Assembly: GCA_964016885.1 (NCBI GenBank) | Contig: OZ024742.1 | Span: 23,064,001 to 23,128,000, forward strand | DNA from: Eledone cirrhosa | Taxonomy: Eukaryota | DNA length: 64,000 nt | Direction of reading: 5' to 3' | Part shown: positions 10,308-52,953 of the stretch, piece by piece | How the letters are laid out: every line of letters starts with the position of its first letter | Numbering within the stretch: position 1 is the first letter of the stretch | Position numbers and translations under genes: made by a program | Notes under the pieces: model-generated | Seen by the model: the letters and a program-made list of their open reading frames with translations, nothing else | The model's database searches: none | Told to the model about the DNA's origin: nothing

Positions 10308-12540
10308 TTGAATAGGTTTGATATGTTTCGGCCAATATTGGCCCAGGCCATGTCTAACTTAATAACACCACTTGGCGAAGTCTTACAAATCAGTATTTGG
10401 GCACCATGGCCCACTCGAGCAGAGAGTTATTGTTTACGCAGGTATATACGTGTGTAGGAGGCTTATCCGGGATTTCTTGAAAGAATTTATCCAAAGACTT
10501 CTTGAACTTGCTGGCGTCTGTCTCTGCTTTGATGTGTTTTGGTGTAATGTTAAAGTGTGCAGAGGTCAATTGAGGTGAAATAATTATGCCGTATTGTTGT
10601 TATGTGATGCGAGTGGGATTTTTGTCGTGGGCGGATAGCACGGGGCCCAAGCGTTGGGTGTACACTAAATGTGATGCCAACATCATTTGGGCTAAGCTGA
10701 TGGAATATTTTCCAAATCATACAGATAATGTATCGCTCACGGCGACGTTGAAGAGAATAAAGTTTGAGCTTTTCTAATCGACCCCAAAAGTCAAGGCCTG
10801 TCATACCAACTATCTTTTTTGTAATTGACCTTTCGGGTGCTTCAACTTTCATGATACTTTGTTTCGTGTGGGGTGACCACAGTGGACAACAGTATTCAAG
10901 GTGGGGTCGGGCAAAAGTGGAGAAGAGAAGGACAACACTGTGGATATCTCGCGACTGGAAAGTTCTGAAGATCCAGGAACACATTCTGCGGGTCATATCA
11001 ACTTTGCTGTTTACATTAGTGGCCCAGCTTATATTGTTGTCCACAATTACTCCCAGGTCTCTGATGTTTTTGGAAGCCACGAGAGTTTCACCCGAAGGAA
11101 GAGAGTATGGTAGTTTCAGGGCATCCTCTTTTTCGAAGTGGATTAATTCAAATTTATCCTCATTCAACTGCATATTATTCATCTCTGCCCATTGGATAAC
11201 AGCCAGTAGGTCTAACTGAAGGTAAGTCCGGTCACCCACCTCATTGATGACCCTTTGGAGCTTGGAATCATCTGCGAAGATTCTGATGTTGCTGTGTTTG
11301 ATGATGTCAGTAATGTCATTAATGTAGATGATGAAAAGAAGTGGGCCCAACACAGTGCCTTGTGGGACGCCACTGCGGACTTTGGCAGGGATTGATTCTA
11401 CTCCTTCGACTACATGCTGGGTTCAGCCTGTCAGGAAACATTTGATCCACTGTAGTAACCTTCTAGAGACACCAACTTCGGATAGTTTTTTCAGTAGAAT
11501 CTTATGATCAACCCTGTCGAAGGCCTTGCTGAAATCAAGGTAGATGACATCAGTGTTGGAGCCCTCTCCCAAAGCTCTCAGAACATGGTCAAAGTGAAAG
11601 TGATGCAAGAGCTGCGTTACGCAGTCCCTTCCATTACGGAATCCATGTTGGTTGGAGTTCAGCAGGCCGTTGCTTTCAAGAAAGTGGGTTATTCGTGATC
11701 TCACCACCCTCTCAAATACCTTGATTATATGAGAGGTGAGTGAGATCGGACGGTAGTTCACTGCAAGGGACTTATTTCCCTTTTTGAAGACTGGGACAAC
11801 GGACTGGGACAGAAGGTTTTCAGGAATATAGCCAGTGTCCAGTGAGTTTCTCCACAGATTAACACGAGGAGTTGCAAGTTGGTGTCGACACACCTTCAGG
11901 ACACAAGCAGGGAACCTGTCGGGGTCTACTGCTGAATTGTGTTTAATTTCATTTATTGCCGCTAAGACATCAGGGGCGCGAAACGTTATGTCTGATATAG
12001 TGTGTTGGGGGTTAATATCACTGATACGGCCGCGATCGACCATATCAGGGTTGCTGAAAACAGAGCAGTATTGTTTCTGCAGTATCTCGCCCATGGTTTT
12101 GGCATTGTCCTGGAGTGTGCCATTTTCATCAACTAGGGGGCCAACAGTGGAGACGGTGACCTTGTGTTTTTTAGCGAATGAGAAGAACACATTGGGGTTG
12201 TGTTTGATTTTCTCAATGGCCAACCTCTCTTCAGCTATTCTCTGGTTATTGATGATGGTCATCATGTATTGCTGCGGGTTATATTTTTTTTACTCCAGCA
12301 GCGTGATAACCATTGAATGTTTGCGTTGCTGTTGGCAGTATCTTAGTGTGTTAATTTTTTTGTTTGTTCTTTTTATTTTTCTGATAATTGTTTTTCTGTT
12401 TTGGGGGATACTGCACTTGGTTTTGTTCACAGGTTTTGGTGGGGTGTATTTTGTACATATATTTTTGACAGTGTCTACCAAGATCTGCCAAGATGTTTTG
12501 ATGTTGGTGGAAGTGTGTGCGTGTGTAAAAGACCTGCCGA
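10306..12540 (-). mobile_element. CR1-type LINE, 5'-truncated, frameshifted ORF2 reverse transcriptase
   Basis: ORFs 11423-12265 and 10550-11353 contain NYRPISLTS, YLDFSKAFDRVDH, LGPLLFIIYIND, FADD, RDLGV, RPHLEYCCPLWSPH and LYSLQRRRER. The 3' end has a short tandem tail. Confidence 0.92.
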
Positions 12541-12565
12541 CATGTGATATACATATATATATATA

Positions 12566-12680
12566 TAAATGAGATGAGCGGAACAAGCAAGCATTAAACA
12601 ATCTTTTAAATAAATAAAAATACCATTTAAATAACCACCTGTTCAAAATGCTGCCCGTGGGTATATTAATCTCATTTTAC
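12566..12680. repeat. ~115-bp (TA)n-flanked repeat, also at 13468-13580 and inverted at 13686-13770
   Basis: ATAAATGAGATGAGCGGAACAAGCAAGCATTAAACAATC occurs three times. Confidence 0.85.
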
Positions 12681-41611: not shown

Positions 41612-41662
41612 AGATTCCTGATGATTTTTAAAGAATGAAACAGTTCTAGTCCTGTAGAATCT
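41612..41662 (+). ncRNA. Type I hammerhead motif, family A (element ends ~41745)
   Basis: AGATTC CTGATGA TTTTTAAAGAAT GAAA CAG TTCTAGTC CTG TA GAATCT. Confidence 0.75.
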
Positions 41663-41745: not shown

Positions 41746-42428
<683 letters not shown>

Positions 42429-42580
42429 ATACTTTGGGAGGGTCATGTTGCCAATAAGAAACACACGCACCAGTTGCTTTCACTTCAATTTATTATTATA
42501 ATAAATTTATAATAAATTTATAAATTTATAAATTTCTGGTTGGTTGGTTGGTTCCACAACCAGATAGTTGTTTCTATATT

Positions 42581-42623
42581 GTCATAGTTCTTTCGTCACA
42601 CACTCTGTGACCTCTTCAGTGAC
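42581..42623 (-). ncRNA. Minimal hammerhead in the Penelope pLTR
   Basis: GTCA CTGAAGA G GTCACA GAGTG TGTGAC GAAA GAAC TA TGAC. Confidence 0.75.
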
Positions 42624-42824
42624 TGGGGATTCCTTTCTTTGTTTCTGTGCCTCTCCTTTGTTCTGTCCTACGCCATTTTGTTTCTGTGTGTGTGTTGTGT
42701 GCTCAGTCTGCGCATGCGCCACATCCGGGTGTCTGTGTGTGTTTATGTTCATTTATTTATTTGTTTATTTACATGTTACTGGTTGGTTGTTTGTTCTATG
42801 TGTGTGTGTGTTTTCATTTTGTCC

Positions 42825-43883
42825 TTAATTGTAAGTTGTGATGTTGCTGTTCCACTCATATTTTCTATTTAATTTTGGTTGTAATTCTTTTATGTTTATT
42901 GCCTCTGTAATTTTTCTAAACATTGCGTCTTTTCTGTGTGTAGATTCTATTTTTATTTCTATGTTCTCTAATTTACCCTTGTGTTCTATTTTAGCATGTT
43001 GGTAGAGTACAAATGATTCTTTACTATCTTGAAGGTCTCGCCAGTGTTCATTTATCCGTACCCCTACACTACGAGCTGTCTTACCTTTGTACACTATATT
43101 TTTGTCTCTACATTGTCCTTCAGTACATCTTATGCTATACACTACATTTCTAGTTTTACAGTTAATATGGGGGCTTATTTTACAGGTTATACATTTCTTA
43201 TCTATACATGAGGGTCTTTGAAAAGGGTATGTCTTGCTAATAAGTGTTTTTACGGAGGTACCTGGTCTTTCTACTATCTTAATAGTGAGTTTATGTTTAT
43301 TTAGGGCCCTTCTAAATGTGTAAGCTAATTCACCTCTGGGGGATGTATCGATGAACATTACACTCTGGTATTTATTGCTATCATACCATGAGTTTATTCT
43401 ATTAGCCTTGTTCCTAGTTCTTTCTATTCTATTCCAAAATTTGCTCCTATACAAGGGGCAGGTCCCATTTATGTCATTATTTACCATTTTTTCCCATTTG
43501 GTTCTGGCTCCTCTATACACTCTGATTTTATCTCTCTGATTGTAGCCAGAGAACTGCATACGGTGGATGAAGTGTTGTATGTGTCTATCTAGTTCTTCGG
43601 GGTTGCACATGCGGGACACGTTTCTCATCACCCGTACCAAATCCGCAATCAGTATGTTGATTTTGGTATGGTCCGAAACGGCCGAGTTTCGGTGGATCAG
43701 ATGTTTGGAAGTCATTGGTTTGGCATAATGGGAATGGAGGATTTGTTTTTTGTTATTAATGGTATCTAACCAGAGCTCTGTGTCTAGTACAGGTAATCGA
43801 TGGTTGGGGTGTTTACTTGGGTAGTCTATAGTAACTCTAATGCTCTGGTGGATGGAGTTAGCTATTTGCTGGATGCTTTCCAT
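42825..43883 (-). pseudogene. Penelope RT thumb, Cys-rich linker and GIY-YIG endonuclease (YIG mutated to YKG)
   Basis: LPVLDTELW..HYAKP, CIDKKCITC..CKTRNVVYSIRC..YKGKTARSVGVRINEH. Confidence 0.88.
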
Positions 43884-44436
43884 TGAGTTTTTCCTCTAGT
43901 TCCTGACTGTTCTCTAGTGTGGGTGTCTTAACTACGATGTTTATATCATCGATGTAACGGGAGTACATTATCAGGGTTAAGGGGTCTTCTAATTGTTCTT
44001 TAAGCTTAAGTTTAAGTCTACTGTCCCACCATACCATGAATAAGTTAGCTATGTCGCCTGCAATGCTAACACCAATGGCTGCTCCTTCCTCTTGGGCATA
44101 TGTTTTTCCATTAAATTTGAACATATGTTCCTTAAGGGTTAGTTTTATGCTGGCCCCTACCGCATGTGCAATCATTTTCTTCAGTTCATCGTGGTTTTCG
44201 GGTGTCCGTATGACTCTGGTCCACCCGTTCCATCTATCTGTGTGGGTTTTCTTTGCCATTGAGGTAATGGTAGGTGGTCTGCCTCTTGCTGGTCTTGTAG
44301 GGCCCAGGTTGCTAAGGTTATATGTGCCTAGGTAATTATTACTATAGGTAAGTTTAAGTAGGAGTCCCAGCTCACTGGTATCAATCCCACGGAACTCAAC
44401 ATTGCTCTCACTGATCATTTCTACGCATTTCTCCAC
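43858..44436 (-). pseudogene. Penelope RT core fragment, frameshifted relative to the downstream ORF
   Basis: YAQEEGAAIGVSIAGDIANLFM and YSRYIDDI. Confidence 0.88.
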
Positions 44437-44554
44437 AGCAAAATCCCACTAGAGAACAGTCAGGAACTAGAGAAAAACACAATGGAAAGCATCCAGCAAA
44501 TAGCTAACTCCATCCACCAGAGCATTAGAGTTACTATAAACCAAATGGGAAAAA

Positions 44555-45217
44555 ATGGTAAATAATGACATAAATGGGACCTGCCCCTTGTATAGGAGAA
44601 CATTTTGGATTAGAATAGAAAGAACTAGGAACAAGGCTAATAGAATAAACTCATGGTATGATAGCAATAAATACCAGAGTGTAATGTTCATCGATACAAC
44701 CTCTGGAGGTGAATTAGCTTACAAATTTAGAAGGGACCTAAATAAACATAAACTCACTATTAAGATAGTAGAAAGACCTGGTACCTCCGTAAAAACACTT
44801 ATTAGCAAGACATACCCTTTTCAAAGACCCTCATGTATAGATAAGAAATGTATAACCTGTAAAATAAGCCCCCATATTAACTGTAAAACTAGAAATGTAG
44901 TGTATAGCATAAGATGTACTGAAGGACAATGTAGAGACAAAAATATAGTGTACATAGGTGAGACAGCTCGTAGTGTAGGGGTACGGATAAATGAACACTG
45001 GCGAGACCTTCAAGATAGTAAAGAATCATCTGTACTCTACCAACATGCTAAAATAGAACACAAGGGTAAATTAGAGAACATAGAATTAAAAATAGAATCT
45101 ACACACAGAAAAGACGCAATGTTTAGACAAATTACAGAGGCAATAAACATAAAAGAATTACAACCAAAATTAAATAGAAAATATGAGTGGAACAGCAACA
45201 TCACAACTTACAATTAA
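44555..45217 (+). pseudogene. Inverted duplicate of the GIY-YIG domain (VVY-YIG intact)
   Basis: NVVYSIRC..YIGETARSVGVRINEH..RQITEAINI..PKLN. Confidence 0.88.
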
Positions 45218-45418
45218 GGACAAAATGAAAACACACACACACATAGAACAAAAAACCAACCAGTAACATGTAAATAAACAAATAAATAAATGAACATAAA
45301 CACACACAGACACACGGATGTTGCGCATGCACAGATTGAGCACACAACACACACACAGAAACAAAGTGGCGTAGGACAGAACAAAGGAGAGGCACAGAAA
45401 CAAAGAAAGGAATCCCCA

Positions 45419-45461
45419 GTCACTGAAGAGGTCACAGAGTGTGTGACGAAAGAACTATGAC
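45419..45461 (+). ncRNA. Minimal hammerhead in the Penelope pLTR (second arm)
   Basis: Same motif as 42581-42623. Confidence 0.75.
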
Positions 45462-45694
45462 AATATATAAACAATTATCTGGTTGTGGAACCAACCAACC
45501 AGAAATTTATAAATTTATAAATTTATTATAAATTTATTATAATAATAAATTGAAGTGAAGGCAGCTGGTGCGTGTGTTTCTTATTGGCAACATGACCCTC
45601 CCAAAGTATAACAATATCCGTTTCAACACACGATTTCAGATAAAGAATCTTGCTAAACAAATTCAGAAACGAAATATATATATATATATATATA

Positions 45695-46016
45695 TTAGAA
45701 AGTGAGGTTTTTTTTACAAAATGAAAAATAACCGTGGTGTCCTACACGAGTGGAAGTATAAAGAAAAAGGGATGAAATCGAAAATGCAACTGAAGTCTTA
45801 TTTTTTAAAAAAATATATATATTTATTTGGTTCCTTTACCGGTTTCGCAGTTCTTCTGCTTTTCAAAAGATGTGAGAAAAACCACAGACCCTCCATCTCA
45901 ACTCACCTTTTGAAAAGCAGAAGAACTGCGAAACCGGTAAAGGAACCAAATAAATATATATATTTTTTTTTTAAATAAGACTTCAGTTGCATTTTCGATT
46001 TCATCCCTTTTTCTTT
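45695..46016. mobile_element. Family D fold-back element with U3-A8 hammerheads (45833-45870 minus, 45906-45943 plus)
   Basis: CCTT TTGAAAA GCAG AAGAA CTGC GAAA CCGG TA AAGG. Arms are ~110 bp. Confidence 0.8.
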
Positions 46017-46035
46017 ATATATATATATATATATA

Positions 46036-46821
46036 GAAAAATACTGCAGGTAGCACATGGATAACATGTAATAAAATGAGTCCCTCATCTGTGATTTGCC
46101 GACGATCATAGGTATTTCATTGCATTAAAAATCATATACCTCACGTCGGTGCAATAATAACCAAAATGAGTTATTAGGACAATTGAAACGCGTAAAGCGA
46201 GTGAGACAGGAGAACAACAAAGAGTATAGCTAACCGTAGGGGAAAGAAACAAGCTTCAAAATTATTATGTTTAGCATAAGCTAGGTGAATATATGGCGCT
46301 TTAGAAAAAAGACCTGACACGAACGATGGCCATGTGAGAAGAGAGAAAAATAGCCTTCGTGGTGTACAGGATGAAATGAAGAGAGGAGAAACAGTGAGTG
46401 AGTGAAAGTGTGAGGAAGAGTTAACTGACATGACAGAGGGGGCGAAAGAAGGTAGGAGAAACAGAGAGAATGGGGGAGCAGTAAGAGAGAGAGAGAAAAA
46501 AACACAGAATCGCAGTTTGGGTAAATATATGTAATAAAATATAGAGAAAAATACTGCAGGTAGCACATGGATAACATGTAATAACATGAGTCCCTCATCA
46601 GTGATTTGCCGACGATCATGAATATTTCATTGCATTAAAAATCATATACCTCACATCGGTGCAATAATAACCAAAATAAGTTATTAGGACAATTGAAACG
46701 CGTAAAGCGAGTGAGATAGGAGAACAACAAAGAGTATAGCTAACCGTAGGGGAAAGAAACAAGCTTCAAAATTATTCTGTTTAGCATAAGCTAGGTGAAT
46801 ATATGAGCGCTTTAGAAAAAA
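46036..46821 (-). mobile_element. Partial tandem element (period 510 bp) carrying the permuted hammerhead-like RNA twice
   Basis: 46036-46310 is repeated at 46546-46821. Motif at 46080-46180 and 46590-46690. Confidence 0.8.
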
Positions 46822-46825
46822 TATG

Positions 46826-46863
<38 letters not shown>

Positions 46864-46865
46864 TC

Positions 46866-46906
<41 letters not shown>

Positions 46907-46937
46907 ATACATATATCTATATATATATATACATATA

Positions 46938-46973
<36 letters not shown>

Positions 46974-46997
46974 CATATATCTATATATATACATATA

Positions 46998-47043
<46 letters not shown>

Positions 47044-47093
47044 CATATATCTATATATATATATACATATATCTATATATATATATACATATA

Positions 47094-47129
<36 letters not shown>

Positions 47130-47267
47130 CATATATCTATATATATATATACATATATCTATATATATATATACATATATCTATATATATATATACATAT
47201 ATCTATATATATATATACATATATCTATATATATATATACATATATCTATATATATATATACATATA

Positions 47268-47346
<79 letters not shown>

Positions 47347-47398
47347 ATATATATATATATATATATATACATATATATATACATACATATATATATAT

Positions 47399-47632
<234 letters not shown>

Positions 47633-48568: not shown

Positions 48569-48763
48569 AGTTTTAATATAGAAGAGATTCTACAGGACTA
48601 GAACTGTTTCATTCATTAGAAATCATCAGGAATCTCCTGATGATTTCTAATGAATGAAACAGTTCTAGTCCTGTAGAATCTCTTCTATATTAAAACTTTT
48701 ATACTCTGCTATGTATTGAGTACCTTACTTACTGTGGTTACCTCCGATTCAAGCCGGAATAAC

Positions 48764-50051: not shown

Positions 50052-50107
50052 ACTGCCTGATGAGGTCATAGCCATTCAATGGCTATCATCGAAATATATA
50101 TAGCAGT
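50052..50107 (+). ncRNA. Type I hammerhead, family E, near the end of a probable ~1.3-kb insert (48860-50151)
   Basis: ACTGC CTGATGA GGTC ATAGCCAT TCA ATGGCTAT CATC GAAA TATATA TA GCAGT followed by AATAAA. Confidence 0.85.
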
Positions 50108-51929: not shown

Positions 51930-52000
<71 letters not shown>

Positions 52001-52003
<3 letters not shown>

Positions 52004-52893
52004 AATAATGGAGCTGCGGCGCTGCAAATGGGTTACATATGAAAAAGTTTGTTCTCATCAGTGGCCATCCAACCGTCGTAGGCATTTCGTCGCATTAAAG
52101 GCCATATACCTCAGGTTGGTGCGAGCAACGGCTAAAAAAAGTCGTTGGGACACGTAAATAAAGGGGATGCTAGGGTAAACAAACAAAATGGTTTAAGCAG
52201 CAGAAAGTGATGAAGAAGGAAACAATTCCCAGATTTCTATGAATATAAATTCGGTGGAATCGTTAACGAGAGAATAAAGACCATCAAACCTGGTTGAAAT
52301 GTGAGCAAGGAAGGAATTTCGCACAGGTCTAACGGAAGGAAGAAGGAGTCTGGTCTGCGAATTCGGTAAACATAAGTTCTGTGAAGTCGCAAACTCTCTC
52401 TGTTAGCCTCTTCCTCACCTTTCACTCACTCACTCTCTGACCCCACCTCTCCTCCTCCCCTTTCTTCCCGTTTGACCTGTCCGTAATCCTTTTCTCGCGG
52501 GCACCCAGCCAAGCCGGTATGAATTTTTTTTCTCTCTCTCTCGTTTGCGACTTCACAGACCTTATGTTTACCGAATTCGCAGACTAGACCCCTTCTGCCT
52601 CCCGTTAGACCTGTGCGAAATTCCTTCCTTGCTCACATTTCAACCAGGTTTGATGGTCTTTATTCTCTCGTTCACGATTCCACCGAATTTATATTCATAG
52701 CAATCTGGGAATTGTTTCCTTCTTCATCACTTTCTGCTGCTTAAACCATTTTGTTTGTTTACCTTAGCGTCCCCTTTATTTACGTGTCCCAACGACTTTT
52801 TTTTAGCCGTTGCTCGCACCAACCTGAGGTATATGGCCTTTAATGCGACGAAATGCCTACGACGGTTGGATGGCCACTGATGAGGACAAACTT

Positions 52894-52900
<7 letters not shown>
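52001..52900 (-). mobile_element. Fold-back element with ~355-bp arms carrying the permuted hammerhead-like RNA
   Basis: Arms ~52037-52393 and ~52543-52900. Motif at 52051-52151 (minus) and 52786-52887 (plus). Confidence 0.82.

Positions 52901-52953
<53 letters not shown>

Follow-up and report, generated by a model that had tools for sequence, protein, structure and literature searches.

A predicted hammerhead ribozyme variant of non-circular block order in a decayed Penelope-like repeat of Eledone cirrhosa

The repeat at 46036..46821 and its surroundings

The window analyzed here is a stretch of 64,000 nucleotides from Eledone cirrhosa (contig OZ024742.1), and all positions given below are positions of the window. 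On its minus strand, 46036..46821 contains 1.54 units of a repeat which we read as a non-autonomous Penelope-like element (PLE). It is truncated at its 5' end, at 46821, and abuts (TA)n with its 3' end, near 46036. The 3' unit (46036..46545, minus strand) is a complete unit of 510 bp, consisting of pyrimidine-rich 5' two thirds, a predicted ribozyme fold and a tail of about 45 nt. The 5'-truncated unit (46546..46821, minus strand) is the last 275 nt of the same unit, and the whole is a pseudo-LTR-like partial tandem. (TA)n borders the element on either side, as a (TA)n target at the 3' end (46017..46035) and as a TA-rich microsatellite at the 5' end (46822..47400), neither of which is assigned a strand. 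The 3' end of the element is also abutted by a MITE-like palindrome at 45757-46019 with 116-nt arms that are 97% complementary, and a sequence resembling this palindrome flanks copies of the repeat family in two further loci, L050 and L180.

When the window was compared with itself, 258 of 276 ungapped positions matched at an offset of 510, versus 78-83 at offsets of 508, 509, 511 and 512, and with one gap allowed 266 of 276 columns were identical (9 substitutions and 1 indel). The motifs CAGATGA (46091-46085) and CTGATGA (46601-46595), both on the minus strand, are exactly 510 nt apart, and a GAAA lies 5' of each of them, starting at 46118 in copy 1 and at 46628 in copy 2. The initial annotation had described 1.54 units of 510 bp with the motif in phase in both, one copy combining CAGATGA with a perfect stem III and the other CTGATGA with a stem III weakened by G-U pairs, and this description is accurate: stem III of copy 1 (GGTA/TACC) is entirely Watson-Crick, while that of copy 2 (GGTA/TATT) contains two G-U pairs, compared with a single one in the form most frequent in the family. 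Standard tools pass over the repeat. Tandem Repeats Finder, with a period limit of 500, is blind to a 510-bp period, Rfam gave no match in the whole window at the gathering score, and at E<=10 the region 42400-47000 yielded no hammerhead family, just microRNA-type noise and one unrelated weak match. Against shuffles the minus strand folds with z = -2.48 versus -0.67 for the plus strand. Reading the element on the plus strand was rejected, as folding there is no better than in shuffles and the scattered hammerhead-like words are not conserved in relatives. The longest ATG-started frame in the 510-bp unit read circularly has 112 codons; like retrozymes, the unit appears to be non-coding.

The predicted fold and its support

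In copy 1 the predicted ribozyme fold occupies 46080..46180 on the minus strand. Read 5' to 3', it starts with the clamp strand GTCC (46180-46177), a hairpin (46176-46155) and the upstream strand of stem II (46155-46150). Then come the first strand of a helix that we call P0 (46149-46144, pairing with 46104-46099), the site block (46142-46129) and the GAAA block (46124-46111), followed by a strand of stem I (46097-46092), the core motif CAGAUGA in which U4 is changed to A (46091-46085), and the clamp partner GGAC (46083-46080). By analogy with hammerheads the cut is predicted 3' of the AUA triplet, between 46134 and 46135. Copy 2 has the same layout 510 nt away (46590..46690, minus strand), with an intact CUGAUGA (46601-46595), two G-U pairs in stem III, one extra G-U in P0 and a cut predicted in the same way at 46644..46645. 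Twister-like and HDV-like readings of the sequence were dropped once the hammerhead stems were seen to covary.

Each unit therefore contains the hammerhead blocks in the order site (AUA with strands of stems III and I), GAAA and CUGAUGA, in copy 1 at 46142-46129, 46124-46111 and 46097-46085 of the minus strand. This order, S, G, C within the unit, is non-circular and corresponds to type SGC, and not to the canonical types I, II and III with their circular orders CGS, GSC and SCG. The claim of the initial annotation that a permuted hammerhead is present once per unit is borne out in this form. Stem I has 5-8 bp with 3 compensatory pairs, stem III has 4 bp and an A-U pair, and stem II consists of pair 10.1-11.1 and 4-6 bp formed with the upstream strand, so that all three stems surround the core. 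Stems I and II are separated by a linker of 3-4 nt, in agreement with the linker of about 3 nt in type SGC. P0, a helix of 6 bp with 2 compensatory pairs, connects stems I and II at their far ends, and we infer that it equals the joining helix of the published type SGC.

The departure from type SGC lies in block C, where the stem II strand would be expected to follow CUGAnGA directly. The strand on the 3' side of CUGAUGA forms a single pair there with the strand that precedes GAAA, and depending on the subfamily this pair is G-U, A-U or G-C; a canonical stem II assembled across units would likewise have this single pair only. The remainder of stem II is formed by the strand before GAAA with a strand 30 nt upstream (46155-46150 in copy 1), GGAC on the 3' side of the core pairs with GTCC still further upstream, and the hairpin separates these two upstream strands. 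About 100 nt of a single unit suffice for the whole fold to close, and assembly across units is hence not needed. This goes against the proposal that tandem units are required to supply the core strands in canonical order, since the strand following CUGAUGA can form only one base pair with that preceding GAAA in any combination of units, and the covarying partner of stem II sits upstream within the same unit.

In a kink-turn a 3-nt bulge is followed by tandem G-A and A-G pairs beside a canonical stem. A strand of this kind, a 3-nt bulge and then GA, is predicted between stem III and P0 of copy 1 (46106..46110, minus strand), facing the GA at 46141-46140, and from the alignment of relatives at 46620-46616 in copy 2. 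Measured against this general consensus the GA is present on the bulge strand in 13 of 14 aligned rows and on the opposite strand in all 14, the bend itself being only predicted. In three dimensions stem III and P0 would form a hairpin bent by the kink-turn, with the site block and the GAAA block, linked by 3-4 nt, in its loop. Stem I would arise by pairing with the downstream CUGAUGA block and stem II by pairing with the upstream strand, the strand after CUGAUGA-N would be clamped by the second upstream strand, and the hairpin between the two upstream strands would turn the base of stem II into a four-way junction.

Covariation was examined in an alignment of 14 rows from approximately six related lineages, the same sequences from which the structure was derived. 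Of its 435 cells 94.0% are paired, and two-sided changes are seen in 10 of the 32 pairs: three in stem I, one in the upstream stem II, one at pair 10.1-11.1, two in P0 and three in the hairpin. Controls in which the strands were slid pair at 30-49%, a comparison that overstates the support, given that the structure was read from these rows, which are themselves related; for the same reason the pair figures are not probabilities. The clamp helix is 81% paired with zero compensatory changes, and stem III varies on one side only. In addition, one sub-lineage shows an extra compensatory change in P0, and the G-U of its stem III has become A-U; in copy L199 P0 and the clamp helix are each altered on both strands. 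A sequence-unrelated repeat at L034:8435-8560 has the identical scrambled layout with a GUC triplet. Nested folding recovered P0 and stem III in four of six copies, the exceptions being copy 2 of the window and the fourth subfamily.

A descriptor of the full fold, composed post hoc from knowledge of these sequences, matched three places in the window (46601, 52061 and 52877), and 46091 joins them only if U4 is relaxed. Shuffled windows gave 0.03 matches each (100 shuffles) and shuffled elements none in 5000, and across 269 loci there were 319 matches, 24 distinct ones among them lying outside the main pattern. The hammerhead core is present in the commonest form of all four subfamilies of the repeat, and among subfamily copies that had not been chosen by their core, CUGANGA, GAAA, UH and the A15.1-U16.1 pair are intact in 65 of 72; in copy 1 of the window the core is broken by the U4-to-A change. 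Within the subfamily the 11 core letters decay at 9/808 and the rest of the fold at 77/7151. The core thus decays as fast as the remaining fold, which indicates that inserted copies are not under selection.

The repeat family and the anatomy of its insertions

In the 3.0-Gb genome a 25-nt core pattern has 3008 exact matches, versus 0 for the reversed control, and the 510-bp unit gave 96 matches among the 40 scored of 3274 candidates, with copies 95-99% identical among those scored. The initial annotation had allowed that the tandem might be unique to this locus and had suggested a search for longer arrays elsewhere; the repeat is in fact present in thousands of copies, and arrays of 14 units, of 7.5 units and of more than 40 kb were found. 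Its retrozyme-like character, with tandem units and one ribozyme per unit, is evident in the family as well. Contigs from two sequencing runs, of unrecorded kind, contain the repeat. Diverged relatives near the first loci, 65-75% identical, define three further subfamilies, four in all, with 3490, 2145 and 1749 first-look candidates in sets that may overlap; the subfamilies differ by 25-35% and their units measure 510-617 bp. The fourth subfamily, that with 1749 candidates genome-wide, is represented in the window by a head-to-head inverted pair at 52000-52904 which is about 68% identical to the repeat over the core and has the fold at 52877 (plus strand) and 52061 (minus strand). This pair has compensatory changes in stem I, which is also GC-richer, and G-C at 10.1-11.1. 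The array of more than 40 kb (G000:C1:81546823-81589007, loci L238 and L239) contains recurring unit variants, which suggest higher-order amplification at the DNA level.

When the repeat is read in the direction that it has on the minus strand of the window, the 5' ends of its copies are ragged and their common 3' end passes into (TA)n. The 3' ends fall into two classes about 45 nt apart, with 24 copies ending 60-69 nt and 99 copies 100-129 nt past the predicted cut in the four subfamilies together; these counts refer to core copies with a TA run within 160 nt, in sets chosen by similarity in which a few loci may overlap. The spacing is slightly longer than the published optional PLE tail of 30-40 bp. 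In several copies an inverted 5' copy is present, which ends at the shorter of the two ends, about 45 nt before the normal one. Partial tandems, 5' truncation, inverted 5' copies and an optional tail are features of PLEs, and the (TA)n target preference is of the type seen in Naiads, for which partial tandems, truncation, inversions, a tail and (TA)n bias are all described in the available text of Craig et al. 2021 (PMC8557442). An origin of the Helitron type was discarded, since it is the 3' end that is fixed and the inverted copies are tail-less. A start of insertions at the cut site was likewise considered and dropped: 5' junctions coincide with the predicted cut in 40 of 3008 cases, compared with 5 of 694 for a control site rich in TA, a 1.9-fold excess that is not significant (p=0.25), and none of 30 loci taken in order of position starts there.

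Units of one dispersed element agree in 292 of 296 diagnostic comparisons, versus 61% between elements, as would be expected from one template per insertion. The units of arrays are equally homogeneous (95-100% concordance), and homogeneous arrays account for the agreement within elements even without a circle, so that a circular template and an uncut multimer both fit. In the life cycle that we propose, read-through transcripts of arrays would be cut once per unit and the products may be circularised. A PLE protein would nick (TA)n DNA and prime reverse transcription 60-70 or 100-125 nt 3' of the cut site, in keeping with the available account of a PLE tail which is explained in vitro by two internal starts of reverse transcription (PMC11167929). 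Reverse transcription would run back over more than one unit, on a circle or an uncut multimer, and would end at a variable point, which at 46036..46821 would have left 1.54 units.

Taken together, 46036..46821 is, in our judgement, likely to be one insertion of a 510-bp family with PLE anatomy, probably a non-coding parasite derived from a Naiad 3' end, whose SGC-order fold is predicted to form within the unit and is likely to be self-cleaving in intact members. Two published results count against self-cleavage as a requirement or a rule: a PLE hammerhead could be dispensed with for insertion in vitro (PMC11167929), and of nine Xenopus retrozyme dimers only one cleaved in a recent test (10.64898/2026.07.22.740005). 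The initial annotation had expected two cleavages to release a 510-nt monomer. Judged from the sequences, such a monomer is plausible for the family at large, as all 11 core letters are intact in 65 of 72 copies, and doubtful for this locus, where copy 1 no longer has U4 and the nested prediction for copy 2, with its additional wobbles, is a different fold. The copy has decayed since its insertion and is probably a weak or inactive ribozyme.

Relation to Naiads, retrozymes and type SGC hammerheads

Statements on the papers cited here refer to the parts of them that were available. Type-SGC hammerheads (HRIMA-1 and its variants; Eckert et al. 2023, PMC10085705) share with the 510-bp repeat the block order, the short linker between stems I and II, an extra helix and the full core. 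They differ in that the stem II strand is contiguous with CUGAnGA, a feature that was assumed to be required, whereas in the repeat an upstream strand forms stem II and a clamp helix, a hairpin and a predicted kink-turn are added (PMC10085705). The published examples come from metatranscriptomes only, with none reported in genomes of known organisms in the available text, and their cleavage was demonstrated; the repeat is an animal mobile element known from its sequence (PMC10085705). Of type CSG just two sequences, both metagenomic, were known to Eckert et al. (PMC10085705). Non-LTR retrozymes resemble the repeat in having short tandem units with one hammerhead each and no long ORF (Cervera and de la Pena 2020, PMC7229834; Li et al. 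2026, 10.64898/2026.07.22.740005), in ranging from monomers to long arrays and in their proposed mobilisation by PLEs (PMC7229834). They are, in contrast, defined by a type I hammerhead, which the repeat does not have, and their expression yields linear and circular monomers, while the repeat is known from DNA (PMC7229834). Its units of 510-617 bp exceed the retrozyme circles of 170-400 nt described in 2020 (PMC7229834) and lie within the 51-972 bp range given in a more recent preprint (10.64898/2026.07.22.740005).

Naiads were reported to be without canonical hammerheads (Craig et al. 2021, PMC8557442), and yet the supplement of that paper logs 'HHR_core' or 'HHR_half_core' in 17 of 54 Naiad entries. 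Examined by eye, at least 16 of the 54 published consensus sequences of the supplement (PMC8557442) end in an SGC-like or CSG layout. The layout of the 510-bp repeat was read in this way in Naiad_Obim, Ovul, Amil, Aacu, Anas and Bfor and in four unnamed entries, with a stem I of just 2 bp in Bfor, and a clean type CSG in Naiad-1, -2 and -3_Nbra (Nippostrongylus) and in three unnamed entries. For one core word matches 1-56 of 62 were surveyed, and matches 5-12 for three further words; the majority of these matches fall within ORFs by chance. Two octopus Naiad 3' ends share, by eye, the clamp, the U-rich hairpin and the kink-turn with the repeat, and pair 10.1-11.1 is mismatched in the entries from octopus and coral. 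Both Naiads and the repeat have partial tandems, 5' truncation, inverted 5' copies, a tail, (TA)n targets and, by eye, the same or a related scrambled 3' hammerhead, while the endonuclease-RT ORF of Naiads is absent from the repeat (PMC8557442). The available part of the Naiad paper does not describe the scrambled fold; it does describe non-autonomous Naiad partners for Chlamys (MRC1) and calls cephalopod Naiads 'remnants' (PMC8557442). We found no published description of the fold in the literature searched, which took in few subscription journals and consisted of text apart from figures and from the supplements of Eckert et al. and of bioRxiv preprints. From its sequence, we consider the fold to be a real hammerhead variant in an animal mobile element, unpublished as far as we could find, of which 46036..46821 is one decayed example.

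In the Eledone genome a degenerate pattern for Naiad RT found 5 matches, one of which was a true remnant, and its control found 3. A search for Naiad-type RT gave 152 matches among the 150 scored of 3274 candidates, in which this RT was seen only as broken remnants. Those at loci L206-L269 are old, about 70% mutually identical and nearly all interrupted by stops or frameshifts. No intact Naiad was found among the 150 candidates scored, a sample in which a distant intact Naiad may be missed. An exact 18-nt motif of an octopus Naiad end has 0 matches in the genome, the hammerhead fold was not found downstream of 39 Naiad remnant loci, and no Naiad RT lies beside the 510-bp repeat in about 200 loci. 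The 3' end of the repeat, which by eye resembles the published octopus ends, was not found beside Naiad remnants.

Several other explanations have to be weighed. That the repeat is an ordinary satellite or local duplication with hammerhead words present by chance is hardly credible, in spite of its large satellite-like arrays and the silence of Rfam on hammerheads, given the dispersal on many contigs with fixed 3' ends, the covariation and the failure of 5000 element shuffles to give the fold. It is very unlikely that the ribozyme needs multimers for its assembly, with neighbouring units supplying its strands in canonical circular order. Tandem arrays are common, the repetition of the strands would allow stems I and III to pair from one unit to the next, and PMC10085705 cites, by reference title, small PLE hammerheads with cleavage as dimers. 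On the other hand, the strand following CUGAUGA would still share one pair only with that preceding GAAA, and a single unit holds the covarying partner of stem II, P0 and the hairpin in a span of about 100 nt. Moreover, single truncated copies retain the whole fold, and autonomous Naiads end, by eye, in the same compact layout. More weight, though still improbable, has the possibility that the fold is real but does not cut, being a recognition signal for the PLE reverse transcriptase derived from a hammerhead. It would fit with the cut not setting the ends of the element, as 3' ends lie 60-125 nt downstream of it and the excess of 5' junctions there is not significant, with a core interrupted where Eckert et al. 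assumed this to be impossible (PMC10085705), and with the dispensability of a PLE hammerhead in vitro, where catalytic mutants still insert (PMC11167929). Against it, CUGANGA, GAAA and UH have been retained in subfamilies that differ by 25-35%, in a family unrelated to them and in the Naiads of a number of phyla, and the variation sits at positions that are free in hammerheads (N7, H17 and the first base of the triplet).

The helper of the young copies is a separate question, on which the fold and the anatomy of insertions do not depend. The window contains, at 42421-45617, a Penelope-like element with RT followed by GIY-YIG and a CxxxC-xxC linker, arranged as an inverted pair with arms 98% identical. 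It is possibly of Neptune type, and each arm has a minimal type I hammerhead, with CUGAAGA at 45423 (plus strand) and 42619 (minus strand). A canonical PLE with a C-terminal endonuclease, such as this one, could have mobilised the repeat instead of a Naiad, which we regard as unlikely but with a real chance of being correct. Repeat copies are 95-99% identical and yet only decayed Naiad RT was found, which fits with the 'remnants' of cephalopods (PMC8557442), and the near identity of the neighbor's arms, its RT-then-GIY-YIG order and its linker are in favor of such a helper. The resemblance, by eye, of the 3' region of the repeat to published octopus Naiad ends (PMC8557442) argues for a Naiad, as does the lack of any match between the repeat and this neighbor in a window-wide BLAST, and with 150 of 3274 candidates scored a distant intact Naiad may have been missed.

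The preferred reading, a Naiad-derived repeat whose fold would cut within the unit, can be extended to a broader model which we hold to be slightly more probable than its opposite. Naiads and their small parasites would carry an active and undescribed non-circular hammerhead, with the CUGAUGA block opened by a four-way junction and bent by a kink-turn, that makes circular RNAs serving as rolling templates; the 'missing' Naiad hammerhead would be such a fold, or type CSG in nematodes. If this is true, non-circularly permuted hammerheads, reported almost only from environmental sequence, would be present at thousands of sites in animal genomes, with a wiring which the defining SGC paper, as far as available, assumed to be impossible (PMC10085705). 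The notion that Naiads thrive without hammerheads, an argument used for the dispensability of PLE hammerheads, would be overturned, and retrozyme censuses would be undercounts, since standard descriptors and Rfam miss the fold.

The window contains further hammerhead-like and RT sequences. A short repeat CTGATGA ... GAAAC AGTTC TA, a minimal type I hammerhead-like sequence, occurs at 41618, 48637, 60553 and 63259 on the plus strand and at 48629 on the minus strand, and forms an inverted pair near 48630. A second family with CTGA(A/T)GA, a long stem II and GAAA TATA TA is found at 50057 and 50835 (plus strand) and 50696 (minus strand); it is also minimal and hammerhead-like, with a palindromic stem III, and includes an inverted pair. 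A broken LINE-type reverse transcriptase lies in consecutive frames at 10550-12676 on the minus strand.
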